DNA of 64,000 bases, from positions 124,001-188,000 of the forward strand of contig NW_027590142.1 in the NCBI RefSeq assembly GCF_964213995.1. Direction: 5' to 3'. Positions within the stretch are counted from its first letter, which is position 1; the number at the start of each line of letters is the position of its first letter. The position numbers and the translations under genes are program-made. Origin of the DNA: Mustelus asterias. Lineage: Eukaryota. This document shows, one piece after another, positions 13,628 through 64,000 of this stretch. The notes under the pieces were generated by a model, which was given only the letters and a program-made list of their open reading frames with translations, was not told the origin of the DNA and ran no database searches.

Positions 13628-14635
13628 TTAAGCAGTGCAACAGCACGGTCTCCAGGTAAAGTTCTGGGACCTGAAAATATACAGCAAGGGATTGAGAAAG
13701 GCAGTGAAGGAAGTGAGAACCCACGTGTAAAATTGAACATTGCATCGGTAAAATGCTGCGCCTGGATTCGATAGCTCCAACAGATCTTTGACCCCAAAAT
13801 ACAATTCTGGAATGTGATAAGGGGCAAAGCAGAAAAGCAGAAGAGCCAAAATTCCCGCAATTGTCTTCAACACTTTCATCTTCATCAGCTTCATGGATTC
13901 TTTCCCTGTCCCCACTTCAATCAGCTTCTTTGATGTCAGGGCATAGCAGATAAATAGGATCAGGACTGGGACGGCAAACGCCATTACTTCAGAAATAAGA
14001 ATGAAGACTTTCCATGGTCTCCACTCTGTGGACATTTCCTTGCATGAATCTATATTTGACACTATTGTTCTCGCTATTAAGATCTCCGCTAGACTTAGAG
14101 CGAAAATTGCCAGCCAAGTTACAATGGACAGCACAACATAATATCGGTGCCTTCTCCAGGAGTGAGACCTGATGGGATGGACAATAGCGATGTACTGATC
14201 AACAGCAATGCATGCCATGAAAGGTGGGTTACCATAAAGGTTGATTACATACAAGAGATTAATAAAATCTACATATTGATCTACAAGCATTGAGAGAGTG
14301 TCTACAGTTAGAGCAATAATGTCAAGGGCGGAAGCAAGAATGACCAAAAGGTTAGTGATGGTTAAGTCAAGCAGGAGTATATCCGATGCTGACGAGAGTT
14401 TCTTTAATCTTATGATATGCCACAATGCAATTGCGTTCCCACCAATTCCCAATACAACTACTAAGCTAAGGAGGCAGAAAAAGATGGTCAATTGAGGCCA
14501 ATCCAATGGTTCAAAGCTGCTGTCAATTCCGGGCACGAGACTTGTATTTCCACTCTGATTGGATGTGTTGATCTCCGGCCAGCGGGCGGCGACTGTTGTA
14601 TTCCAGCTCACAAAAGTACTCATTCGATGTGACAT
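13628..14635 (-). CDS. Single-exon rhodopsin-class GPCR, delta group (P2Y/LPAR/PAR-like), 335 aa
   Basis: Seven hydrophobic segments; GN in TM1, NLYG..FMACIAVDQY in TM3, AIVHP, CFAPYH in TM6, NPLLY in TM7; N-terminal NxS/T sequons; C-terminal CCC; splice acceptor ttttag near 14656 just upstream of the ATG. Confidence 0.9.
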   Translation of the reverse strand: MSHRMSTFVSWNTTVAARWPEINTSNQSGNTSLVPGIDSSFEPLDWPQLTIFFCLLSLVVVLGIGGNAIALWHIIRLKKLSSASDILLLDLTITNLLVILASALDIIALTVDTLSMLVDQYVDFINLLYVINLYGNPPFMACIAVDQYIAIVHPIRSHSWRRHRYYVVLSIVTWLAIFALSLAEILIARTIVSNIDSCKEMSTEWRPWKVFILISEVMAFAVPVLILFICYALTSKKLIEVGTGKESMKLMKMKVLKTIAGILALLLFCFAPYHIPELYFGVKDLLELSNPGAAFYRCNVQFYTWVLTSFTAFLNPLLYIFRSQNFTWRPCCCTA

Positions 14636-15228
14636 CGCAAAATGAAGAGCACTGGCTAAAATATAAAGTTATATCATACAATTACAGTTGATAATACAGT
14701 GAGATTATACAGTAAGATTACTGCTTGTTAAGTTTTATGTTTTGTCTCCAAATCGCCAATGTTTTTGATAGGTACAGTCTGGGAAATGCTCTGCTCAGAA
14801 ATCTATGGATACCAAAGGACACGAGACATCCCAGTGCCAGCAGCATGCAGAATGGCAAAAATGAAGCAGAACCAGAAACGTGTAAATCTGCAAGTATATC
14901 AATGGGAAGAGGATAAGCAGGGAAAGAGTAGGGCTCAGTAAGGACTACGGGGAAACCTGTGGGTGGAAGCAGAAGATATTGGTAGGGTGTTGAGCGAATA
15001 TTTCACATCTGTCATCACCCACGAGAATGATGAGGAAGATATGGAAGTCGGGCAGAGAGATTGTGAGGCTCTGGAGGAAATTATTTCAGGGAGTGACAAG
15101 GTTTTGGAGTTATTGGCGGTCGTAAAAGTGGACAAATCTCCAGGTCGAAATACACTGTGTCCCAGCCTGTTGTGGGAGACAAGAGAGGAATTTTCAGGGA
15201 CTCTGGCCCAAAATTTTAATTTTAATTC

Positions 15229-21058: not shown

Positions 21059-21194
21059 NNNNNNNNNNNNNNNNNNNNNNNNNNNNNNNNNNNNNNNNNN
21101 NNNNNNNNNNNNNNNNNNNNNNNNNNNNNNNNNNNNNNNNNNNNNNNNNNNNNNNNNNNNNNNNNNNNNNNNNNNNNNNNNNNNNNNNNNNNNN
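21059..21194. other. Assembly gap (136 N)
   Basis: Run of N. Confidence 1.
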
Positions 21195-27790: not shown

Positions 27791-28754
27791 TCACGAGGCA
27801 CAGCAATGAGTTCTCCATTGGAAGTTCTGGGACATGAAAATGTACGGCACGGGATTAAGGAAAGCAGAGAAGCAAGTGAGGGCCCAGGTATAGATCTTAA
27901 CATGGCATAAGTAAAAGAATGCTGCTCGATTCAATGGATCCATCAGGCCCTCACTCAAAAAATACAGTTCTGGGATGTGAAAAGGGGCAAAGCAGAAAAG
28001 GAGAAGAATCATGATTCCTGAAATGGTTTTCAGCACTTTTGTCTTCATCAGCTCCATATATTTCTTCCCAGATCCTGCTTCCGTCAGCTTCTTCACTGTC
28101 AGAGCATAGCAGATCAATAGGACCAGAACTGGCACAACAAATGTCATAGCCTCACAAAATAGCATGAACATTTACCGAGATCGCCTCGTTAAAATATTAT
28201 CCTTGCACGTGATACTTTCATATGCGGTGTTTCTTGTAAAGTGAAAGGCCGCCAGAGTCATGGCTAACACTGCCAGCCATGTTACAATGGATAGGGCGAC
28301 GTAGTATTGGGGCCTCCTCCAGGCATGGGACCTGATGGGATGGGAAAAGCGAGGTACCGGTCAATAGCAATGCAGGCCATGAATGATGGATTGCTTTTAA
28401 TGTTGACTAAACCGATGAGCAGATGGGTGTCAAGAAGTAGCTTCGTGAACTGACATCCAGGGATCAAGTGAATAAGATAAAATATAGAAGCCAAGATAAC
28501 CAAGATGTTGGTGATTGTTCGGTCAAGCAGGGGAACATCAGTCGCTGAAGAAACTTTCCTCAGTCTTGTGACATGCCACAGTGAAATTGAATGCCCAGCA
28601 ATGCTCAGCACGATAGTGAAGCTGAGGAGGCAAGGGAGGACGAGCGTTTCAATTTATTCAGTTGCTCCGGGTCTCTCAAAACTGGCATTGCCAGTATGAT
28701 TGGCAGAGTTCATCATCGTCCAATGATTGCATTCCAGCTCACAAACGTCGCCAT
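27791..28754 (-). pseudogene. Disabled paralogue of the P2Y/LPAR-like GPCR
   Basis: Starts MATFVSWN (vs MSTFVSWN); FMACIAIDRY, CFAPFH and NPVPY motifs; early in-frame stops, a 1-bp frameshift near 28347 and a TAA at 28172-28174. Confidence 0.9.
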
Positions 28755-29239
28755 TTGGTGTTTCGTCAAATAATAAAGAACAGTTGTTCAAAACCGTGGG
28801 GAAATGTGCAGATAGATAGCTTGACGAATAAAAATTGGGGAAATGAGAAGATAGATTGTCGATAGATTGTTAAAAAAGCACTCCAAAATTATTGATCTTT
28901 GAAGGGCGCAGTTGAACACCTTAATTTTATCTCAGTCGTTCAGACTGAATGAAGTTCGTCTGCGAAACTGGTGGGAAGTCAATAGATGTGAAAGATTTCT
29001 ATGGTGCTACTCTGCAAAACTGCATTGATCAAATTGGAATTGAATCCTGCAACAAGACAGATTTGATTAAGTGCATTAATTCATTGAAACTAATACTACA
29101 TTATAAGAAATAAAGCCAGTTATATGGAAACAGTCTATTATCTCAATCCCACATTCTCCAGAATATATTAATATATTTTAAACGCATCAACATATTGCAG
29201 CTTCCTTTCTGTCACGGTGATATCTGTACGCTGACTGTG

Positions 29240-36485: not shown

Positions 36486-36494
36486 TCACTTGAT
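36486..36494 (-). CDS. IGHM: IgM TM2 exon (IK-stop)
   Basis: ttttccag|ATC AAG TGA, 128 bp downstream of TM1; gives a KIK cytoplasmic tail. Confidence 0.8.
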   Translation of the reverse strand: MK

Positions 36495-36622: not shown

Positions 36623-36744
36623 CTTCACCAGAGTGACAGCAGTGTTGTAGAAAATGCTCAGGGAGAACAGGAAGATGAATGTGGAAGCGGTTGTACAGAT
36701 GGTATCATCCTCATTGCCTTCAGTCCAGATGCGGTGTGTGGAGT
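36623..36744 (-). CDS. IGHM: IgM TM1 exon
   Basis: ctctag|..DSTHRIWTEGNEDDTICTTASTFIFLFSLSIFYNTAVTLVK|gtgag; CART-type TM, phase-compatible with the Cmu4 internal donor at 41596. Confidence 0.92.
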
Positions 36745-50784: not shown

Positions 50785-51900
50785 AGGGGCGGGGAGAGTG
50801 TGTGTGAGCGACAAAAAGTGTGAAACTTAGACAGAATGGATATGTGAGTGTGTGTGAGTGAAATAACCGTTGAGATAACATGTGCCTGTGATAGGTGGAG
50901 TGTTTGAGAGATACGTTGCATATACATGTGTGTCCGTGTGTGAGAGATGTCGAGACTGTGTGTGTGTGAAAGGGAGGGTGTTTGTGAGAGACAGTATTTG
51001 AGAGCAAGATTGTGCATCTGTGAGACAATGTGTAAGGAAGTGAGCGTGTGAAAGAGAGAGAAATATGTGCCTATGTAAGAGAATGCGTGTGCAAGTGTTC
51101 GTATGAGAGAGAGTATGTGACTGAGTGTGAGACGGAATGAGAGTACAGAAGAGGGAATGTGAGAGGGATAGTGCATGTGTGTGCGTGTGTGTGTGTGAAT
51201 GAGTGTGAGACGGAATGAGAGTACGGAAGAGGGAATGTGAGAGGGATAGTGCATGTGTGTGTGTGTGTGTATGTGAGGGATAATGTGTACGTATGACTGT
51301 GCTTATGTGAGAGACTGTGTCTGTGTGTAAGAATGTGTGTTACAGTGTGTGCATGTTCTATGTTTGTGAGAGAGTGTTTGTGAGAGAGCCAGTGTGTGAG
51401 AGCAAGAATGTACAGGTGTGAGATAGTGTGTGCAAGAGAAATAGAAATATATGCGTGTGTGCGTGAGAGAGAGAGAGAGAGATGCGTGTCCAAGAGGAAT
51501 TGTGAGAGAGCCTGTGTGAATAAATGTGAGACAGCTTGAGCGTGTGTGACAGAGTGTGGGAGAGAGAGTGCATGTGAGAGTGCGTGTGCGAAAGTGTGAG
51601 ACTGTGCTTATGTGAGAGTGTGCGTCTGCGTGTAAGAGAGAATGTGTGTGGGTGTGTGTGTGTGTGAGTGCTTTTGTGTATGGGAGTGTGAGAGATTGAT
51701 TGAGAGAGCGAGAATATGTATGCATTTGTATTTGAGAGTGTATGTAGAACGTGAGACAGAGAGAATGTCTATGGGTTTGTGAGAGAGATCGTATGAGAGG
51801 GTAAGTAAGTCTGAGTATGTATGTGTGCATGTGTGAGAGAATATGAGAGTGTATATGTGTGTATTTATGTGTGTGAGAATGTGTGATGTGTGTAAGTCTC
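49880..51900. repeat. (GT)n/(GA)n microsatellite-rich tract
   Basis: Includes a perfect (GT)n run at about 50732-50782 and a ~80-bp local duplication. Confidence 0.9.
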
Positions 51901-52079
51901 TAGCTGGCTGATTCAGTTTGGAAAAGCACCCTCACTCCACACAAACTCACCCACTCACACAGTCAGTGGGAGTGATATGTGAGCACAATACGGACTGCGG
52001 GTCAAAGGTTAGAAAAACAGTTAAATCTTTCACAAGTCAGTCACAATGAATAATTTCCTCTTTCCTCAATGAGCGAAAC

Positions 52080-52520
52080 TTGTTAAAACTCAAGAAATTT
52101 GACACAATCCAGGGCTAAGTCACCCATAAGGTAACGCTCAGGTAAGGTAGCCCATAAGGTTACCCGCCCCCTCATTCATCCTATTCATTTTCTCCATCAT
52201 TAACAAGCAGTATCAGCAGTGTGTATTATATACAAAATGCACTGCAGCAACTCACCAAGGCTCCATAGAAAACATTGTCCAAACCCGCTGCCTTTACATC
52301 CTAGCAGGGCAAGGGCGGCAGCCACATATGAACACTACCACCTGCAAGCTCCCCTCCGTCCTGACTTGAAACAATATCTCAGTTCCTTCACTGTCGCTGG
52401 GTGAAAATCCTGGAACTGCCTGCCCAACAGCACGGCGGATGCCTGCAGCATATGGACTGCAGTTATTCAAAGATGCTTCATATCAACACTTTCTCAAGGA
52501 ACAATTCGGGAAGATTAAAA
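52080..52520 (+). mobile_element. L2/CR1-group LINE 3' remnant
   Basis: CIIYKMHCSNSPRL motif shared with the 12365-12637 ORF. Confidence 0.6.
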
Positions 52521-53216
52521 ATTCTGGCCGAGCAAATGACTCTAAAATACCTTTAGAAGATTAAAAATAAGATGCAAATGAATTTGACCCTCCAACTGTC
52601 CTACTAAACAGGTTAGGGACTGCTCTAGTATGGAGTACAATATAGTAAATCTCACTTTCCATTTGCTCATCGAGCATTCCCAAGGCAGGTACATCACTGC
52701 TTAAAAATCACCCAATTCTCCCGCTCCAGTCTGACGTTTCTGCTCTCTCTCTCATGGTAACATTATGCTTTAGGGATCTAATTTCAGAGACGCCAAATCA
52801 AACATCAAGTCAAACTGTCACATTTCTCACAGGTACAAGTGTATTGAAGAAATAAATCAAATTTCACTCCCTGAAATACAGGCGAAGGAACCAGAAGATT
52901 TACAACCAGTCAGGCAGATTCCTGGCACCAACACGGTGACCACGCGGACAACAGACACATTACGGTGCAACAATCGATTTCCCAGCAGATATGTCTGTTC
53001 AATCTGTCAATTTCATTCAAACTGTTCGATTCTAATTGATTAATGAACAACTTACAACAACAGAAAATCAATAACCTCTTTTAAATAAAACTGATATTCA
53101 TTCCAAAACTCCTGTCAATTTTTAATTATTTCTCTGTCTCACTTCTCGAAAACTAAGTAAAAATGTAATTTCGCTGAAAATGAGCAATCGAAAATAACAG
53201 ATTCAGGACAATTCCA

Positions 53217-54343
53217 TGTCCCTAACAGAGATACAGTGACACTGTAACAATTCAATGTCCCTAACAGAGATACAGTGACACAGTAACAATTCAGGGTCCC
53301 TAACAGAGATGCAGTGACACTGTAACAATTCAATGTCCCTAACAGAGATACAGTGACACTGTAACAATTCAGTGTCCCTAACAGAGATACAGTGACACAG
53401 TAACAATTCAATGTCCCTAACAGAGATACAGTGACACAGTAACAATTCAATGTCCCTAACAGAGATGCAGTGACACAGTAACAATTCAATGTCCCTAACA
53501 GAGATACAGTGACACAGTAACAATTCAATGTCCCTAACAGAGATACAGTGACACTGTAGCAATTCAATGTCCCTAACAGAGATACAGTGACACTGTAGCA
53601 ATTCAATGTCCCTAACAGAGATACAGTGACACAGTAACAATTCAGTGTCCCTAACAGAGATGCAGTAACACTGTAACAATTCAATGTCCCTAACAGAGAT
53701 ACAGTGACACTGTAGCAATTCAATGTCCCTAACAGAGATGCAGTGACACAGTAACAATTCAGTGTCCCTAACAGAGATGCAGTGACACAGTAACAATTCA
53801 GTGTCCCTAACAGAGATGCAGTGACACTGTAACAATTCAATGTCCCTAACAGAGATGCAGTGACACAGTAACAATTCAGTGTCCCTAACAGAGATGCAGT
53901 GACACAGTAACAATTCAGTGTCCCTAACAGAGATGCAGTGACACAGTAACAATTCAGTGTCCCTAACAGAGATGCAGTGACACTGTAACAATTCAATGTC
54001 CCTAACAGAGATACAGTGACACTGTAGCAATTCAATGTCCCTGACAGAGATACAGTGACACAGTAACAATTCAGTGTCCCTAACAGAGATGCAGTGACAC
54101 TGTAACAATTCAATGTCCCTAACAGAGATACAGTGACACTGTAGCAATTCAATGTCCCTAACAGAGATGCAGTGACACAGTAACAATTCAGTGTCCCTAA
54201 CAGAGATGCAGTGATACAGTAACAATTCAGTGTCCCTAACAGAGATGCAGTGACACTGTAACAATTCAGTGTCCCTAACAGAGATGCAGTGACACAGTAA
54301 CAATTCAGTGTCCCTAACATAGATGCAGTGACACAGTCACAAT
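53217..54343. repeat. 39-bp minisatellite, about 29 copies (TGTCCCTAACAGAGATRCAGTGACACWGTARCAATTCAR)
   Basis: Unit starts at 53217 and 54309 are 28 x 39 bp apart; there are no unique spacers. Confidence 0.97.
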
Positions 54344-57304
54344 TAAACAATTAAACAAACCAAGAAACATGGACGTTGAAAATCATTACCTGATTCGATC
54401 TAATTTCTTAATTAAATGTAATCAACAAAATAATCAAGGCAAAGCACTTTATCGAGCTGAGCACAGCTGAGTAAAGAAATGTTTTGTTTCTGAATTCAGT
54501 TCTGATACAATTAAATATTCTCTAAAACGGGTGATATTTTGCAGGCCAGTGCAATATTCAAGGTCTTTTGTTTTGAATTAATATTATATTGTAAGTTATT
54601 GTTATTTGTCAGTTCGTTCTCCTGTTAGCTGATTTGTACTCTGTAATAAAATGAGTTATCAATCATTCAAAACGTGCTTCTGCCTCCAACATTGTTAAAT
54701 AATTAGGTTACAATTAAATCTTAGACAATGTTGAACAATAATTTCAAATTACTGAATGGAAACATTCAGACATCTGTCATTCATTTACTTAAATCTAATC
54801 ACATTGTAATATTTTAACTTTTTAACCTTTACTACAAATGTCTTATTATAACCTACAAACGTGTTAAAATGCATAGTTCTGAATTTCTATAGGCGGTAAC
54901 GGCCTGACAGTTTGAAATCAATCATACTGCTTCCTAGATTTAATAATTTAGAGCATCCAAATAACTTAATTACTGAACATATCGTTTAATTAAAGAAGAT
55001 CTGAATTAAACAGTGCAAACACAAAGAGGACAATTGATTCAAATCCTCTGTAACACTAAAACATGATGCAGAATACAAGTCCAGACTTTTTTTTCATTAT
55101 AATATTTAATAAGAACATAAGGTTCAGATAGAATCAATTCTTCTGTTCCGTTATTTATTCTTCCCATAATTCTATCCTGTGTTCAGCAGTAGTGGGAGAC
55201 AGAATGTTATTATTAAGTGAAGAGCTAAGATTACTTTTATAATATATATAATATTATTATAATATTTTATATAAATTAATCTTTTTGCATTTCAAGCATT
55301 AACTTCTCCATCTTTAGCCAGTTTCTATTGACACTTTACTACAATTTAATTTACTACAATTCAAACATAATCTAATCTAATGAACAATTACTTGAGTGTA
55401 AGCGAATTCCACCCGTCAGAAATCTCTGTTCAATCTGCCAAATTTATTCAAACAGTTTGATTCTAATTTATCAATGATAAAATTGCAACAACAAAAAAAT
55501 CAATAAACTATTTTAAATTAAACTGATATTCATTTCAAAACTCCCTTCAATCTTTAAATATCTCTCCCTGTCTGTCTCAAATCTCGAAAACTGGGCAAAA
55601 ATGTACTTTTTCTGAAAATGAGTAATGTCCCTAACAGAGATATAGTGGCATAGTGAGAATTGTAATTCATGATTTATTTTAATTCTTAAGCATCAGTTAA
55701 CACTAATAAGATACTATAACATGTATTTATTTTATTTTTCCGAAATCTGTTTGTTTTATCCCTACAAGAATTTTCAAACGCAGATTTATTTTCATTTAGC
55801 CAGAAAACGTGTCACTGCTCATTATCACTGAGCTAAACAATACAGAAACAATTGAGCAACCACAAACAGTTCAACAAATTTTAAGATTAGATTAGGGATT
55901 AATTATCGTGTATCCAACTATAGATTACTTGGAAGGAATAATGTGGTTGCGCCTGCACAGAAAGAATGTAACAATCGGATACATAAATTGCCAAATAGCA
56001 ATGTCTTATTTTCCGAAACTCATATTTAAGTGAATGCGAACTTAATCAAGGAGATAACGATTAATGCAAAGTATCTTGTTAAACTGAGCGCTGCTGTGGA
56101 AGCAGCATGTTATCATTGAAATAGTTTCTGGAATTATCACAAAATATTTCCAGCACAGAATTTTTTCTGGTCATGTTAATTGTGTGCAAAGCACAGCAGA
56201 ACTAGTAGAAGTCATTAATGCTAAATGATATTAATACAAAATAATCTTTGGTGAATGTGGTGAATGGTGAATATTACTGATTAATAATTGTTTGATTCAT
56301 ATTAATTTTACTATCAAACTTGTTAATGAGAAGTTTGTGACTGCAGCAACGACTTACTGTCCGAATGAACTTTGTAAGTCATGATTTATTTTAATTTGGA
56401 AGCGTTAGTTAAAATTTATAAAAACGCTGTAATGTCTCTATCTTTTTCCCAAAACCTGCCTGTTTTCTCTCTACATGGATTTTCAAACTCATAGATTGTT
56501 TGCTTTCAACCAGAAAACGTGTAACAGCTCAGTACCACCGAGATTAAACAATGCAGAACAATGCTGAAATGCCAAACCATTTCACACATTTTAAATATTC
56601 ACAGTGGCCGAACCACAAAATCTCCTCAAAAGAAACACTCCAAAACAGATCACTGAGGGATGGAACCCCGTTTCACGGAATAGCAGCTCAATTATTCATT
56701 CAACAGAATCAAATGGAACATTGCAAGAACATCTCAATGTTGAATTCAGCAAAACAGCTCGTCACCAAATGCATGAATCATTAACCTAAACAGAAATATG
56801 GAATAATAGCAATAACGTTGCGCGGAGGTGGAATATGTCCGACAAATTAGTATTGAAACTTTAACACATTTTATTTATATTGGGTCAAATTTCAAACATA
56901 TTTAAACATCTGGGAAAAACTTCAGCCATCAGATATCACCGAGGTTAAACATTGCAGATACCCCAAACAGTGATTGCAGTGGCAAACTATGTTCTGAACG
57001 AGCGGCGTGATCTGCAATTATCACTTACGATAAAAAAATACAAATGCAATAAAGCATGCCCGATTTCTGTCAAGCAATTTAACACCTATAGACTGTTTGT
57101 ATTCAAGCACAAAGCGTATAACAGATCAGTGTAACCGACTTTAAACAATGCAGAAACAATGCTGAATCGAAAAACCATCTCACACGTTTTACTTATTCAA
57201 AGTCACCCAGATACAAAATCTCCTCACCAGAAATGCACATCACTGAGCGACTGAACTCCGTTTCATGCAGGAGCAGCTCAATTCTACAAACACTTTCAAC
57301 AGAA

Positions 57305-57775
57305 TCATAGAACATAGAACAGTACAGCACAGGAGAGGCCCTTCGGCCCACGATGTTGTGCCGAGCTTTATCTGAAACCAACATCAAGCTATCCCACTCC
57401 CTATCATCCTGGTGGCTCCATGTGCCTATCCAATAACCGCTTAAATGTTCCTAAAATGTCTGACTCCACTATCACTGCAGACAGACCATTCCACACCCCA
57501 ACCACTCTCTGCGTAAAGAACCTACCTCTGATATCCTTCCTATATCTCCCACCATGAACCCTATAGTTATGCCCCCTTGTAAAAGCTCCATCCACCCGAG
57601 GAAATAGTCTTTGAACGTTCACTCTATCTATCCCCTTTATCATTTTATAAACCTCTATTATATCCCCCCCCCCCTCAGCCTCCTCCGCTCCAGAGAGAAC
57701 AGCCCCAGCTCCCTCAACCTTTCCTCATAAGACCGACCCTCCAAACCAGGCAGCATCCTGGCAAATCTCCTCTGC
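57305..57775 (-). mobile_element. CR1 3' fragment in the J-C intron
   Basis: FFTQRVVGVWNGL motif and CATAGAACATAGAAC tail. Confidence 0.85.
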
Positions 57776-58314
57776 AAATGCAACATTGCAAGAAAATCTC
57801 AATATAAAATCCAGCCAATCCGCCCGTCACCAAAGTAACTAATAATTAAAATGAGCACAACAACGACATAACAAAAGCAGCATTGTGATTAAGTGGAACA
57901 TGTTCATAATATTAATGCAGAAACTTTAACACGTTTTGTTAATATTGGGTTAGACGTCAAACACTTGTGCAGTTGATGGTACAACTCGCAGCCACTATAT
58001 GTCACCGAGATAAAACATTGCAGAAACGCCGAACTGTTTAACAGAAGGTAGGTACTTAAAGTAACCCAACCACACAATGTCCTCAGCAGATAAACACCAA
58101 ATCACAACAGAGACTGAATCACTCACCTTTTGTCAATTATCAGTAGAATTCTATAACCCCCATTTTAAGCAGAATCACATGAAACATTGTAAAGATTTTC
58201 AGCACATAATCCACCAAACCACATTTCAGTGAACAAGTGAATTAATAAAATCGAGAAAAAATATAAAACAAAAACTCAAGTAAAACACTTACTAAATAAA
58301 TTTACGGTCCTTAC

Positions 58315-58362
58315 CTGCAGTCACCGTCACCATGGTCCCTTGTCCACAGTAATCCATGGCGT
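58315..58362 (-). CDS. IGHJ: JH segment (AMDYCGQGTMVTVTA); W of WGxG replaced by C
   Basis: Follows a 23-RSS and ends at GCAG|gtaag. Confidence 0.93.
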
Positions 58363-58401
58363 CACAGTGTCACATTCCCTGGGCTGGCTCATACAATAAC
58401 C
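58363..58401 (+). promoter_or_regulatory. JH 23-RSS
   Basis: CACAGTG-23 bp-ACAATAACC. Confidence 0.93.
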
Positions 58402-58708
58402 ATCCCTGCGCAAAATAGACAGAAATCCACCATTATTTTAAAAATTCACAAGCCAGAGGGTAAGTAAATCACTGCATTTTCATCAAATTATTATTGTATT
58501 TGTGGACACTGTTCGCTCTACATAAATGACCCGAATACTTTATATTTCACAGAGTATCACATGATCATATTATTGAAAACACCAACTGATCATTGAATAT
58601 TAATTCTCGCTATTATTGCAGTGTTAGACATCAATAATACAGCACTGTAAATAATGTTGGATTGTGAACCAGAGCACTGACACAGCCTCGGTCAATTAGT
58701 GCTGAGGG

Positions 58709-58736
58709 GTTTTTTGTATTGACAGTAACTGTTGTG
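58709..58736 (-). promoter_or_regulatory. D 3' 12-RSS
   Basis: CACAACA-GTTACTGTCAAT(12)-ACAAAAAAC. Confidence 0.85.
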
Positions 58737-58753
58737 CCACCCAGTTGCTGTAT
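58737..58753 (-). CDS. DH segment ATACAGCAACTGGGTGG (12/12 RSS)
   Basis: 17 nt between two oppositely oriented 12-RSS. Confidence 0.9.
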
Positions 58754-58781
58754 CACAGTGAGACACGCCCGCACAAAAACT
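58754..58781 (+). promoter_or_regulatory. D 5' 12-RSS
   Basis: CACAGTG-AGACACGCCCGC(12)-ACAAAAACT. Confidence 0.95.
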
Positions 58782-59149
58782 GCACTCACTCTCTGTTCAG
58801 TACTGCCGCTCAATATTCACTACAAATAGACCAATATTTCTGAGCAATTTACAATTTATGCAGCAGTTTATAAAACACAATCCAGAAACATCTCCTCCAA
58901 GTATCAGAAATATTAAAACGAGCATTATATCCCAGGTCTGCAATTGCAGAAACTGTTAACGGTAAATATAAATAGAGTGAAAAGCACCATTATGTCTGTG
59001 GGTTTGCTCGGTTTAATGTTTAATTTTCTCTAAGTTAGGTTTGTCAGAAGCGGTTTGTGTTTTAGTTCTGATCACTGTCATTAACATTACACTTAAAACA
59101 GTTATTGACAATCAGGTTATGATGGAAGTTGCTGCACTCCCTCTCGAGC

Positions 59150-59188
59150 TGTTCTTGTTGAGGTCCAGCCCTGGTTCCTCTTGCTGTG
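59150..59188 (-). promoter_or_regulatory. VH 23-RSS
   Basis: CACAGCA-23 bp-ACAAGAACA directly after YYCARD. Confidence 0.88.
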
Positions 59189-59496
59189 GTCTCTTGCACA
59201 GTAATAGATGGCGGTGTCTTCAGTCTTCAGGCTCATCATGTCCAAAGCGAAGATATTGTTCGAAAGGTCTTTGGACGGAGTAAATCGGCCCTGAATCTGT
59301 GGGTCATAGTAGGTGGTGTAAAATGAACTTCTGTATCCAACCAACCACTCCAGCCCCTGTCCGGGAACCTGTCTAATCCAGTTCATCCAGTTGCTGCCAA
59401 GATCGAAGCCACTGGTTTTACAGGTCAGTCTCAGGAAGCCGCCGGGACGCCCTGTTTCTGCCTCCAGCTGAGTCAACACAATCTCCGACTGGACAC
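59189..59496 (-). CDS. IGHV: IgM VH exon (open frame)
   Basis: tttacag|VQSEIVLTQ...LTCKTSGF...[13 protein letters not shown]...RFT...[11 protein letters not shown]. Confidence 0.97.
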
Positions 59497-59623
59497 CTGT
59501 AAAAACATGTCAAATTACCGAGGATTAATCTTGGTGAAATGATTGCTGACTCTGGGTCATTCCAAAGGTAGGCTAATTCTGATACAGTAACAGTGAGAGA
59601 CGTGGACAAGAAAAACTAATCAC

Positions 59624-59635
59624 CGGATAAGAAAG
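59624..59635 (-). pseudogene. IGHV: 3' remnant of the VH leader exon, truncated by the ERV
   Basis: CT TTC TTA TCC G|gtgatt splices over a 127-bp intron to give FLS-G-VQS, the usual end of a shark VH leader; the LTR begins immediately upstream. Confidence 0.8.
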
Positions 59636-60401
59636 TGTAAGGGAAATTGTACTGGATATTGTATGAGTTTAGTATGGAATTCAGATTCATAGGTTTTAGT
59701 GAAATAATAAAGCAGATTTAGATAAGTAGTGAAAATGGATATGTAACCTAAAATAACTTCGTGTGACCTAATATAATCAAGTGTAGTCGATATGATCAAA
59801 GTGGAGAAACTAGAGAAGTAATATAGCAATCACTAATTAAGGAAAGCAGACAATAGTCACTTAAGAAAACAAGGAAGACTGCTCGGTGGTTCAACTTAAT
59901 AGTGGACCATAAACCAGCAGAGAGAATGTCTTTTCTGCTAAACACATTAGTGGACCATAAATCAGCAGGGGGATGTCTTTTCTTCTAAACACTTTCGGCC
60001 TTAGCTTACAAACCCACGATTATTGTACAAACAGAAAAGTTCAGATAAGAGCAAGAGTTATAACCACCATGGTTTAAGAAACGAAGAGATATAACAGTGA
60101 ACGACCGATTGCAAAGAAAACAGATAAAGGGTCAACTAAAAATAATGGTGGCCAAAGAAAGAGCGGGCTGTAGGGTAAGATTACAACCAAGGACAGGCAG
60201 TAAAAGGGAGATAAGGATCTTGAGATAGGAGGCTGAAATGTACATAAAAGAGTGTAAGCCCAAGGGCTCTTTGGAGTGTTCCGGACGTTCCCGGCTTTGT
60301 CTCTTGTGCTGAGAAATAAAGTCTTTTGCTTGAAAGATCGCTGCTCAGACTCTCTGTTTTAAACCGATGTGAACGAATTGTCGTCCTGGGGAACCACGAC
60401 A
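59636..60401 (+). mobile_element. 5' LTR of an endogenous retrovirus
   Basis: TGT...ACA termini, a 48-bp U3 direct repeat (59900/59948), TATA-like CATAAAA near 60243, AATAAA at 60315-60320, followed by a PBS. Confidence 0.82.
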
Positions 60402-60405
60402 AAAT

Positions 60406-60425
60406 TGGCGCTGCTTAGCAGGGTT
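60406..60425 (+). promoter_or_regulatory. Primer binding site, tRNA-Ser-like (imperfect)
   Basis: TGGCGCTGCTTAGCAGGGTT, 4 nt after the LTR, resembles the complement of tRNA-Ser(UGA/CGA) 3' ends. Confidence 0.6.
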
Positions 60426-61619
60426 GGTGAGAGATCGCCCAGAAAAGCATCTGGAAGGAGTGGCGGAGACGGTGGTCCAACCGGAACCGAGAGGTCCCCA
60501 GCCGGCCTTCTGTCAACAAGGTAAGCAGACTTGCATGCATGTAAATCCTTGGTGTCAGAAAGGGGTTTTCTCGAGGCCCGGCGCACCCGGCTCTCTGCTG
60601 GTCCTGGATCTCCCCAACCCAAAAAGATATCCTGCACAGGTAAAACCAAATTGTGTAAAATTTTTTTGAGAGACTGAGTCTGATCTGAAGAGCAGAATTT
60701 TTGCATGCAAAAGCGCGCTGCGAATACTGTATTGTCTGTGAATGGGTAAAAAGTGAGACGGGAAAAAGGCCGAAAGCTAAAGTAATGCAATTAGGTTAAG
60801 TCAAGCGGTTTGGAGCGGGTTTTTCAGGTCACGACTTGCCCAGAAGAGAGTAAGTGTGGGAAAATCTGCCAGTCCAAACCTACCCAGGACCTCGGGTAAG
60901 GGACGTCAACCGAGAGGGAGAGAGATCAGTGAGAGATCACTCTCTGACCTAATACAGTAGCCAAAAGCACAGGAGTGGATTTTAACCACAGGAAAGGGGA
61001 GTAGCAGCTAGAATAGAGAAAGTAAAAGACCAATTTGAACAAACTGGTCTGAGAAAACAGCGTGAAGGACAGAAATAAGAGAGAGAGTCGGAATATAGGT
61101 AGGGTAATAACTAACAACTTGAAAAATTACCCTGACAAAACTGCCTGGTGACAAGATTGAAAATAACTAATCTTTGAATAATAAAAAAAAACGGAAGCAA
61201 CACTGGATTGGAAAAAGATTACACACATAATTAACTTAGAGGAGATAAAGAATGAGTGGCCGTATGTAAAATGGGAAAGAGTAGTCGATAGGAATTGGAT
61301 AGACGAAATAAAATTGGAAACCCTAGAGAAATTAATAAAGGGATCTGACCGATACAGGATTCTTATACACATAGACGAGCAAGTGAAAACCTACTACCCT
61401 CTGGCCCGGGAGAGGAAAATAGTGCCGGGACAGGGGACTACGGGGAAGTGGATATCAGGACCCCGGTTAGAATTACAGATATTGGCAAAAGAAATCCAAA
61501 GGAAAGGTAAACAGGGGACTGAGCACGGAAAAACAATACAGCAAGTAATAATCACTGTAATACCTAACTCTGACGGACTAAGTGACAAAAATTGCGACAG
61601 TGATCCAAAAAGACGAGTA

Positions 61620-63657
61620 ATGGCGCACCAAGTTAAGACACCAGTGGAGATATTAGGGGATAAGTTCCCAGCCCTTAGGGGAGATATAGAACACGTCTCT
61701 AAAAAATGGGCCAAAAGAACAAATAAGACCGATACACAGTGGCCGGAGGAAGGCACATGGTCCATAGAGAGGTGTGAGGACCAGAAGGGAATGATAAAGA
61801 ACTATAAGATTAAGGATAAATCGAGCAAAAGAGGGGAAAAGCGAGAAAAGGAGTTAGAGATATTAGCCCTATTCCAACAAGAAGGGAAAGAGAGAAGAGG
61901 GGTATGGAGGGGAGGTAGGATGCAGATGCCAGTACAACTTGAGGAAAAAGCAAAATTGGAAGATCCAAACGTAGCCCCACCCCCATACTTAGAGAAACAG
62001 AGCTCCACGGGACTGTACCCAGTTATATCAGGCACAATGAATTTTGAGGGAGAATATGACATAGAACAGATGACGAAGGAGGAATGGGCATGAAAGGAGG
62101 GAGAAAAGAAACAAGGTATAGAGGAAGCAGCTAGGAAAACAGAAGAGGTTTTGGAGGAGCTGAATCTCAGGAGGAAGGAGTTAGAGGATGAAGTAAAGGT
62201 GGTAGAACTTTTGGAATGGGCAAAGAAGGTAATGGAAAAGGAAAAAGAACGAGAAGAGGGAGGAGAAAATGTTAGAAATAAATATGAGGGGAAAACAGGA
62301 AATGATTTTTGCGAGTATGCAAGTGAGACATCACAAGGATGGAGGTGGAAGCACCCAGAGGAAGGTAGAATGGCGAGAGAGACGGAAGGAGAAACAGAAG
62401 AGAGTAGTGAAGACGAAGGGAGGCAATCAATGTTAGGGGTGCAAAGAAAATCAAGGCGGGAAAGGCACCCACCTGTAAAGTTTCCAGATGTGGATAGGAG
62501 AGGGAAAAGGGTATTCCCGGTGATTCTGAAGGGTGGCAGACCGCAGTATATCCCTTGGTCAGGTCAGGATTTGCCTAATTTAATTAATGAATTACCCAAT
62601 ATTTTGGATGGGGCTGGAAGGTGGATTGGACAGTTGGAGGCGGGAATGGTGGGAGGTGACGAAGGTGCTAGGAATGGACCAAATGGCGGAAGTAATGAGA
62701 CGTGCTGGCATCCCGACCGCAGCTTATGACCCAGCGGTGGATGGGACACTAATGGACCAGTACCGCCAAGACATCTGGCAGGCACTGTGGGATATGTACC
62801 CCAATCGAATGGATGTAAAAACCCTAAAGGGAGAGCCACTGGGTGAGGAGGAGAATGCAGCGGTGTATGTGGAGAATCAATTAAAAAGGTGGAGAAGGGA
62901 CACGGAGAGGGACATTCTAATAGACCCACTGACCAACTCCATGTTCCGGGCTGCAATCCTAGAGGGCTTGCCAGCCCCAGCTAAGACAAGGCTGGAGGAA
63001 GTGGTGGGCTTGGACTCAAAAAATTACCGAGAGTTTGTGGATTATGTTGCCCATGCAGTAGAGAGACATCGCAAAGATGAAAAGAATGCAGACAAACAGC
63101 TGAAGGAGGTACAACGTAAACTCCTTCAGGCACAGTTGGAGGAGATCAAAAGCAAGGATAAACTGAAGGCAAAAGAGGATCTCGCACCCAGAAAAATAGC
63201 ACCAATGATGGTGGAGCAAAAGCCAGAGGAAATACCTGCACTAATCAAAGGGGGGAGCGGAGATGGAGGCCAGCCCGTCATAACCTATAACATTTCTGCC
63301 TTCCCACTGTCCATGAACCCAGGAGCCTATGGCCTAAATTATCAAAACCCATACGCCCTGCAAAGTCAGACTGACTGGAATAGAAATGGGAAAGGACAGG
63401 GAGGTGGTAGGCCACCCTATCAGAATCAGAGAGGACAGGGACAGGTTAATCATCAGACTCCGAGACAGGGACCACTGCCTGGCCCTTCAGGTGTGTGTTG
63501 GGGGTGCGGGGAGGCAGGGCACATAAAAAGGAATTGCCCGCGGAATTTCCCCAGACAGGGAGAAAACCAGCAGCAGACAGGCCAACAACTGATCCAAGGA
63601 TCGCCAAACAGCATCCCGATGTTTCAAGGGCCGGTAAACCATCAGAATTCCCCATAG
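61620..63657 (+). pseudogene. gag: Class I ERV gag with an in-frame TGA (62091-62093) and a frameshift near 62655
   Basis: WPEEGT matrix motif, PPPY and LYP late domains, capsid-like region, CWGCGEAGHIKRNC zinc knuckle. Confidence 0.88.
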
Positions 63658-64000
63658 GGAGGCCCAGAGAACCCCGAAATGGTAGGACAGCACGTACAGA
63701 TAACAGAAACTGCAGAGCAGGAACCTATAGTTAACGTTAGAGTAGGAGGGATCGAGGTCCCCATGATGATAGACACCGGCGCCACATGTACGTGCATGCA
63801 AACGAAATATGCGGATCACTTACCATTGTCAAACCAGTTTGTAAAAACTGTGGGGTTCTCGGGGAAAGTAACATTAGCTCGAATGACGACGCCGGTGCCT
63901 GTTACCATTGGAAATAAGACAACCCATGTACCTATTTTAGTATGTGATAAAACTCCTTTAAATCTATTGGGAAGGGATGCAATCCTAGGTTTAGGACTGA
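63658..64000 (+). CDS. pro: Retroviral aspartic protease, in frame after the gag TAG (readthrough); truncated by the window end
   Basis: ...EPIVNVRVGGIEVPMMIDTGATCT...NLLGRDAILGL: DTGA and GRD motifs. Confidence 0.9.

Follow-up and report, generated by a model that had tools for sequence, protein, structure and literature searches.

An antisense endogenous retrovirus in the leader exon of a shark IgM heavy-chain minicluster: a probable case of insertional pseudogenisation

The immunoglobulin cluster and its surroundings

The minus strand of the 64,000-nt stretch of Mustelus asterias DNA analysed here (contig NW_027590142.1, positions 124,001 to 188,000; hereafter the window) holds one IgM heavy-chain cluster composed of V, D and J segments, four C1-set exons with a secretory tail, and two transmembrane (TM) exons (Table 1). 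The organization is that of a minicluster: one VH with a 23-RSS and one JH with a 23-RSS lie within about 2 kb, the four C-mu exons with their secretory tail and the TM exons are homologous to those of shark IgM, and no second V is present anywhere in the window. The best named relative is the IgM of Triakis scyllium (BAJ20180.1), with 80% identity in V and 84-92% in the four C exons; Scyliorhinus follows at 74-91% and nurse shark at 62-86%. This similarity points most likely to a carcharhiniform host.

Nurse shark IgM genes are described as VH-D1-D2-JH-C-mu miniclusters that form Groups 1-5, together with pseudogenes (PMC2435157). The window cluster resembles shark IgM miniclusters in its single V, single J, four C-mu exons, secretory tail, two TM exons and segments about 400 nt apart, and differs from them in its single D, its provirus-cut leader and its J without Trp. 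Moreover, its J-C intron (45228-58314) spans 13.1 kb, roughly double the nurse shark length of 6.3-6.8 kb (PMC2435157). Within TM1 (36700-36623, minus strand), Cys is found where four of five shark references have Trp, and Ser replaces a conserved Phe (F27S).

The J-C intron contains long simple-repeat tracts (46300-52000) and a minisatellite of 29 copies of a 39-nt unit (53208-54344; 94% matches) located between two diverged flank copies (52981-53188 and 55412-55626). Just downstream of J, several diverged repeats with a period of approximately 600-1,000 nt occupy positions 55640-58100 and could contain the intronic enhancer or a switch-like sequence. The same J-C intron harbours, on the plus strand, a gene for tRNA-Pro(TGG) (47883-47972) that is itself interrupted by 18 nt of intron at position 37/38; aragorn recognized it when introns were allowed and mis-called it as tRNA-Gln without that option. 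tRNA-Pro is not known to be among the usual intron-bearing tRNAs of vertebrates. Downstream of the IgM cluster lie an open single-exon gene for a rhodopsin-family GPCR (13628-14668, minus strand; Pfam 7tm_1, E 9e-31), an assembly gap of 136 N (21059-21194) and a paralogue of this GPCR split over three frames (27794-28784, minus strand; 41-58% identical to it). Finally, a 232-aa protein labelled Aeromonas veronii proved to be 90% identical to shark C-mu 4, which is probably host contamination of the bacterial record.

Table 1. Features of the IgM cluster and of the retroviral element, by position in the window
Feature	Position	Strand	Remarks
TM2 exon	36486..36493	-	I-K-stop
TM1 exon	36623..36744	-	open, bordered by AG and GT; 60-74% to membrane IgM of sharks
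C-mu 4 exon and secretory tail	41534..41925	-	tail ends ...DTVNSCQ and stop; AATAAA just downstream; 91% to Triakis IgM
C-mu 3 exon	42413..42721	-	open; 92% to Triakis IgM
C-mu 2 exon	43644..43949	-	open; 84% to Triakis IgM
C-mu 1 exon	44928..45227	-	open; 88% to Triakis IgM
JH, AMDYCGQGTMVTVTA	58315..58362	-	Cys replaces Trp of WGxG; GT donor intact
J 5' RSS, 23-nt spacer	58363..58401	+	0+1 mismatches to consensus
D 3' RSS, 12-nt spacer	58709..58736	-	3+1 mismatches
D core, single, 17 nt	58737..58753	-	no stop in any of the three frames; candidate D1-D2 join in the germline
D 5' RSS, 12-nt spacer	58754..58781	+	0+1 mismatches
V 3' RSS, 23-nt spacer	59150..59188	-	2+2 mismatches
VH exon	59189..59496	-	open; both Cys and FR2 Trp; Pfam V-set E 2e-12; 80% to Triakis IgM V
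Leader intron, 127 nt	59497..59623	-	GT...AG
IgM VH leader exon, 12-nt 3' remnant	59624..59635	-	match to Triakis leader end
5' LTR, 766 nt	59636..60401	+	TGT...ACA; TATA-like box TACATAAAA at 60241; AATAAA at 60315
PBS-like 18-mer led by TGG	60406..60423	+	4 nt past the LTR
Splice-donor-like AG/GTAAG	60519..60525	+	5' leader region
gag region, broken	61185..63657	+	capsid C-terminal fold; one CCHC knuckle; TAG at 63655-63657
Aspartyl protease (DTGA)	63658..64000	+	Pfam RVP E 1e-11; in frame after gag TAG; runs off the window

The retroviral element and its junction with the leader exon

Upstream of V, the plus strand carries the 5' part of a retroviral element. Neither a second LTR nor a solo LTR was detected in the window by blastn, and the window ends inside pro, so that any 3' LTR, TSD, V promoter and leader ATG would lie beyond it; since a single LTR copy is at hand, the ends of the LTR rest on landmarks rather than on a second copy. 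Its U3 contains two diverged copies of a unit of about 48 nt (59893-59995), which resemble an enhancer duplication. The PBS-like 18-mer may resemble the 3' end of a tRNA-Ser; Rfam returned no matches in 57500-64000, and the tRNA gene of the window is unlike this 18-mer.

The gag region bears a premature stop (62091-62093) and a frame change within 62605-62654. Over 356 aa, its 3' half shares 87% identity with a protein of another shark (Scyliorhinus torazame XP_072328578.1), and a teleost relative reaches 27%. Upstream of the match to the first Met of the Scyliorhinus Gag, 145 codons are open and in frame (61185-61619, plus strand) without a Pfam match, possibly as an N-terminal extension or a small upstream ORF. 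This gag family is widespread, as 159 proteins of a 50%-representative library match at E <= 1e-10, one of them at 95%. Gag and pro share one frame in which TAG separates the zinc knuckle from DTGA, an in-frame layout described for gamma- and epsilonretroviruses (PMC13517186).

The best match of a structural model of the capsid piece (pLDDT 78, pTM 0.51) is the CA-CTD of MLV (Z 9.8, rmsd 2.8, 87 aligned), which takes ranks 1-2 among 48,161 chains; a Copia retrotransposon comes third (Z 8.6, 1.2 below MLV) and PEG10 reaches Z 8.2. Foldseek returned nothing at E <= 0.001, and the capsid-piece sequence gave two matches in the PDB, both non-significant and unrelated. Pfam recognized no capsid family on the gag pieces of the window; a weak Gag_p30 was obtained on an Astyanax relative (E 0.013), and the Atlas neighbours of the Scyliorhinus Gag homologue, which are rows of the homologue and not of the window gag, carry Gag_p30/p24 and belong to retroviral Gag clusters. 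RVP is the best Pfam model for the protease, and lentiviral proteases appear among its best 60 of 177 PDB matches, a comparison that does not classify the element.

In its LTR, PBS-like site and splice donor, in a gag that has a single CCHC knuckle, in its in-frame TAG-pro and, putatively, in an MLV-like capsid fold, the element resembles the class I epsilon-like ERVs described from fish (CmiERV II/III, the ZFERV/SSSV group, clade Mu; PMC4422223, PMC4977317, PMC6001957). It is unlike the named ones in that no named virus is found among its matches, so that the assignment reaches class I and no finer lineage, and in that its gag is broken twice. We consider it most likely to be a class I (epsilon-like) ERV lying antisense to V, known here from its LTR-to-pro part. 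Epsilon-like ERVs are known in a chimaera (PMC4422223) and, more generally, from cartilaginous fish (PMC4422223, PMC6001957).

Across the junction, the minus strand reads ...CCTTACA, then CTTTCTTATCCG (12 nt at 59635-59624), then GTGATT, with the GT donor at 59623. These 12 nt comprise the final two bases of a Thr-type codon, codons for F, L and S, and a phase-1 G that splicing completes to Gly. The spliced product (TFLSG/VQS) equals the end of the Triakis scyllium IgM leader letter for letter, and F-L-S plus one residue before V-Q/L-S also occurs in four of nine named shark or chimaera V proteins. The leader intron ends with TTTTTACAG, after which the V exon opens with GT GTC CAG TCG GAG ATT from 59496 (minus strand). 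F-L-S followed by a base and GT is found at 5 of the 128,000 strand positions of the window, and F-L-S followed by a base and GTRA at only two sites; the second of these, at 52707, is a chance match within the J-C intron with no adjoining V. Leader similarity stops exactly at the TG of 59636, upstream of which the codons read N-F-P-Y where L-S-L-L-L is expected. The leader/LTR junction is real and well beyond chance. Hence the Triakis match and the LTR landmarks bear out the preliminary description, which placed the last 12 nt of the leader and its donor against the TG of a 766-nt antisense LTR.

Since a Triakis-type leader would make the exon 46 nt long, approximately 34 nt would be missing from it, and a six-frame search did not find the 5' half of the leader in the 64-kb window. 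The preliminary description had also pointed out that an alternative intact leader splicing to V would speak against disruption. Within the window, no alternative signal peptide was found for V. The sole candidate was an in-frame ATG at 59690 on the minus strand of the LTR, which reads into the leader remnant (59690-59625) and could splice to V. It was rejected because its product, with 22 polar residues and a best 8-residue hydropathy of 0.36 (versus 2.39-3.27 in all eight shark or chimaera leaders compared), has a non-hydrophobic N-terminus, and because such an ATG is expected in 21% of shuffles.

The single D segment and the condition of the cluster

V, D and J are unjoined and have kept their RSS (spacers of 23 for V, 12/12 for D and 23 for J), with gaps of 435 and 374 nt between them. 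No other RSS pair at <=4 mismatches, as a hidden second D would require, was found between V and J, where a lone 24-spacer RSS match at 58548 was observed (background 0.31 per kb). D1 segments have a 12/23 RSS layout and D2 segments a 12/12 one; a single D with 12/12 signals fits a D1-D2 join because the 12/23 rule would leave exactly that. The normal spacings of the segments fit it as well, and the D core and its spacers may resemble a D1/D2 hybrid. We infer that the single D is probably the product of an independent, RAG-type germline D1-D2 join. Alternatively, D1 may have been lost by deletion, or the cluster may be of a one-D type. In canonical clusters, two D segments are found at a spacing of about 400 nt (PMC2435157), and 1-3 D per cluster have been described (PMC4279169).

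Joined Ig clusters of elasmobranchs include IgM1gj and the NS4 light chains, and the germline joined forms given are VD-J, VD-DJ, VDD and VDJ (PMC2193156, PMC5192425); in the literature surveyed, V-DD-J figures only as a somatic intermediate of thymus and spleen (PMC2435157). Like germline-joined clusters, the window cluster lacks one segment and one spacer and retains its outer RSS, the outcome expected of a RAG join. Unlike them, it has V and J unjoined, so that only D-D would be joined (V-DD-J), and unlike IgM1gj it keeps C-mu 2. The earlier suggestion of a germline-rearranged cluster thus needs qualification: V, D and J are separate and retain their RSS, whereas the presence of one D instead of two fits a D1-D2 join.

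Neither a stop codon nor a frameshift occurs in the 1,792 coding nt of the Ig exons, and every border is GT/AG. Changes at otherwise invariant sites amount to 3/38 in V (0-4 in 10 references), 1/9 in J (0-2 in five references), 2/173 in C (0-24 of 170-194 in eight references) and 2/20 in TM1 (0-4 in five references). The references were named shark proteins picked from 15 and 52 matches, chimaera, skate, tetrapod and unnamed rows being left out, and some of them may themselves be pseudogenes. Relative to these references, no excess decay of the Ig exons was shown. The VH framework carries P10L and A73P (numbering from the V of VQS), and the anchor Trp of J, present in all five references, is Cys. 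The latter is the one telling change, and is consistent with either post-insertion decay or an earlier lesion. With two lesions in gag, the probability of finding none in the Ig exons is 0.22, which is uninformative on the order of events.

A functional cluster would carry an intact leader exon and a J with WGxG; here the leader is reduced to 12 nt and Cys stands for Trp. The cluster has likely lost its own heavy chain, given that the window contains no leader 5' half and that the ATG of the LTR provides no signal peptide, and we regard the locus as a probable case of insertional pseudogenisation of a redundant IgM cluster. The knockout of a whole minicluster had been proposed. As regards the heavy chain of the cluster itself, this likely stands; 'whole' may overstate the case, since the cluster retains intact C and TM exons and, switching from one cluster to another having been reported (PMC5192425), the C exons might still be used.

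Origin and meaning of the disrupted cluster

The explanation that we favour, with a probability of roughly 0.6, is that an antisense class I ERV split the leader of one redundant IgM minicluster, whose loss was tolerated, the D join being a separate event. Insertion of an ERV into an exon cuts the remainder of the host gene off from its promoter and its start codon. In the present case, a class I (epsilon-like) ERV would have integrated in antisense orientation about 12 nt before the end of a leader exon of approximately 46 nt, in a cluster that would have been intact or nearly so when hit and would have undergone only point changes since. The promoter, the ATG and the hydrophobic core of the signal peptide would then sit several kb away, behind the 3' LTR and without a donor of their own, so that no normal heavy chain could be produced. 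Because sharks carry 15-200 such IgM clusters (PMC2435157), the loss would have been tolerated and the cluster left to drift. The single D would stem from a separate germline D1-D2 join, and the two events need no common cause. Against this explanation, the J without Trp and the V changes P10L and A73P could predate the insertion, and the far junction lies outside the window, as do RT and env.

The cluster could indeed have been crippled already, in which case the ERV landed in a pseudogene and knocked out nothing. The J Trp-to-Cys change against Trp in five of five references, P10L and A73P at otherwise invariant sites of V, F27S in TM1 and four mismatches each in the V RSS and the D 3' RSS all point that way, and nurse shark is reported to have three IgM pseudogenes beside 9-12 functional clusters (PMC5192425). 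Ig exons free of stops and frameshifts, splice sites that are all GT/AG and counts of private changes that stay within the reference range for every exon nevertheless make this an unlikely, if credible, account. A highly improbable one is that the junction does not reflect a clean integration: the leader 5' half could have been deleted, LTR-LTR recombination could have fused two loci, or repeats could have been misassembled. The window stops in pro, leaving the TSD outside, and the N gap at 21059-21194 indicates an assembly that is not gap-free; the break is nonetheless base-exact at the TG start of the LTR within the exon, no N or filler lies near it, and a 5' junction that arose by integration would hold regardless of any later rearrangement on the far side. 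Least probable of all is an origin from a Gypsy- or Copia-like LTR retrotransposon in place of a retrovirus, a reading that would change the label of the element and not its effect on the Ig gene. The window, ending in pro, contains neither RT nor env, Pfam finds no capsid family on its gag pieces, and Copia (Z 8.6) and PEG10 (Z 8.2) come close behind MLV in the fold comparison. However, the in-frame gag-TAG-pro arrangement, the 5' splice donor, MLV folds at ranks 1-2 of 48,161 chains, RVP as best Pfam protease model, the weak Gag_p30 of the Astyanax relative (E 0.013) and the retroviral Gag clusters of the Atlas all argue for a retrovirus.

A further account, which we hold to be improbable, links both events: in the germ cells or early embryos of sharks, IgH promoters would pass through a transiently accessible state, perhaps through B-cell tissue attached to the gonad, and the same clusters would draw both RAG-made joins and retroviruses that integrate at the transcription start, the present cluster being a germline V-DD-J whose C exons possibly serve as switch acceptor. 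If true, ERV insertions would constitute a second, RAG-independent record of germline Ig accessibility. The insertion lies within the exon that adjoins the V promoter, the cluster concerned also shows a single 12/12 D, and gammaretroviruses prefer promoters for integration. In addition, the epigonal organ, a B-cell tissue, is attached to the gonad (PMC5192425), and ZFERV, a fish epsilon-like ERV, is transcribed in thymus (PMC4977317). Against this account, the joining of Ig genes by RAG in germ cells of sharks is already established, and is described as infrequent and old (PMC2193156). Clusters joined in part or in full are frequent in some sharks (PMC5192425), which makes co-occurrence cheap, and young mouse and human ERVs, albeit of other classes, were found to insert in late-replicating, repressed regions (PMC4911145). 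Insertions in redundant clusters also escape selection, which counts for chance. Assuming uniform insertion, a genome of 3-4.5 Gb, 15-200 clusters and 1,000-100,000 LTR insertions, from under 0.001 to 0.3 leader-exon insertions are expected per genome; for Ig exons and promoters taken together the figure is 0.01 to 14, and any such insertion would have been flagged alike. At ERV counts as low as those reported for elephant shark (100-700 insertions; PMC4977317), the exact leader spot would be rare by chance, which leaves room for a promoter bias; chance is then not a comfortable explanation for it. Yet the ERV adds little on germ-cell openness, because every ERV enters through the germline and a single event was picked after the fact. 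The proposal that this locus was open in germ cells is accordingly unsupported, resting on n=1, with the D-D join and the insertion undated and unordered.

The components of the favoured explanation are all of known kinds, namely an IgM minicluster pseudogene, a class I fish ERV and a probable partial germline join. In the literature searched, outside of which lie key subscription papers, we found no earlier description of a shark Ig cluster that carries an ERV. The locus is most likely the accidental loss of a spare copy, and not proof of openness in egg or sperm cells.

As such, it offers an unusually clean and datable example of the death of a shark antibody cluster. The two LTRs of the provirus would serve as a clock for the loss of the cluster, and would set an upper or lower bound on the probable germline D-D join. 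Because its V exon and every C exon are open, annotation would list the cluster as functional. The way in which RAG gains access to Ig genes of germ cells is an unsettled question (PMC2193156), and the present insertion is one data point toward a genome-wide test of ERVs at IgH promoters or joined clusters. Enrichment of ERVs at such sites across many genomes, if true, would matter more than any single insertion, because ERVs would then be an independent marker of germ-cell access.
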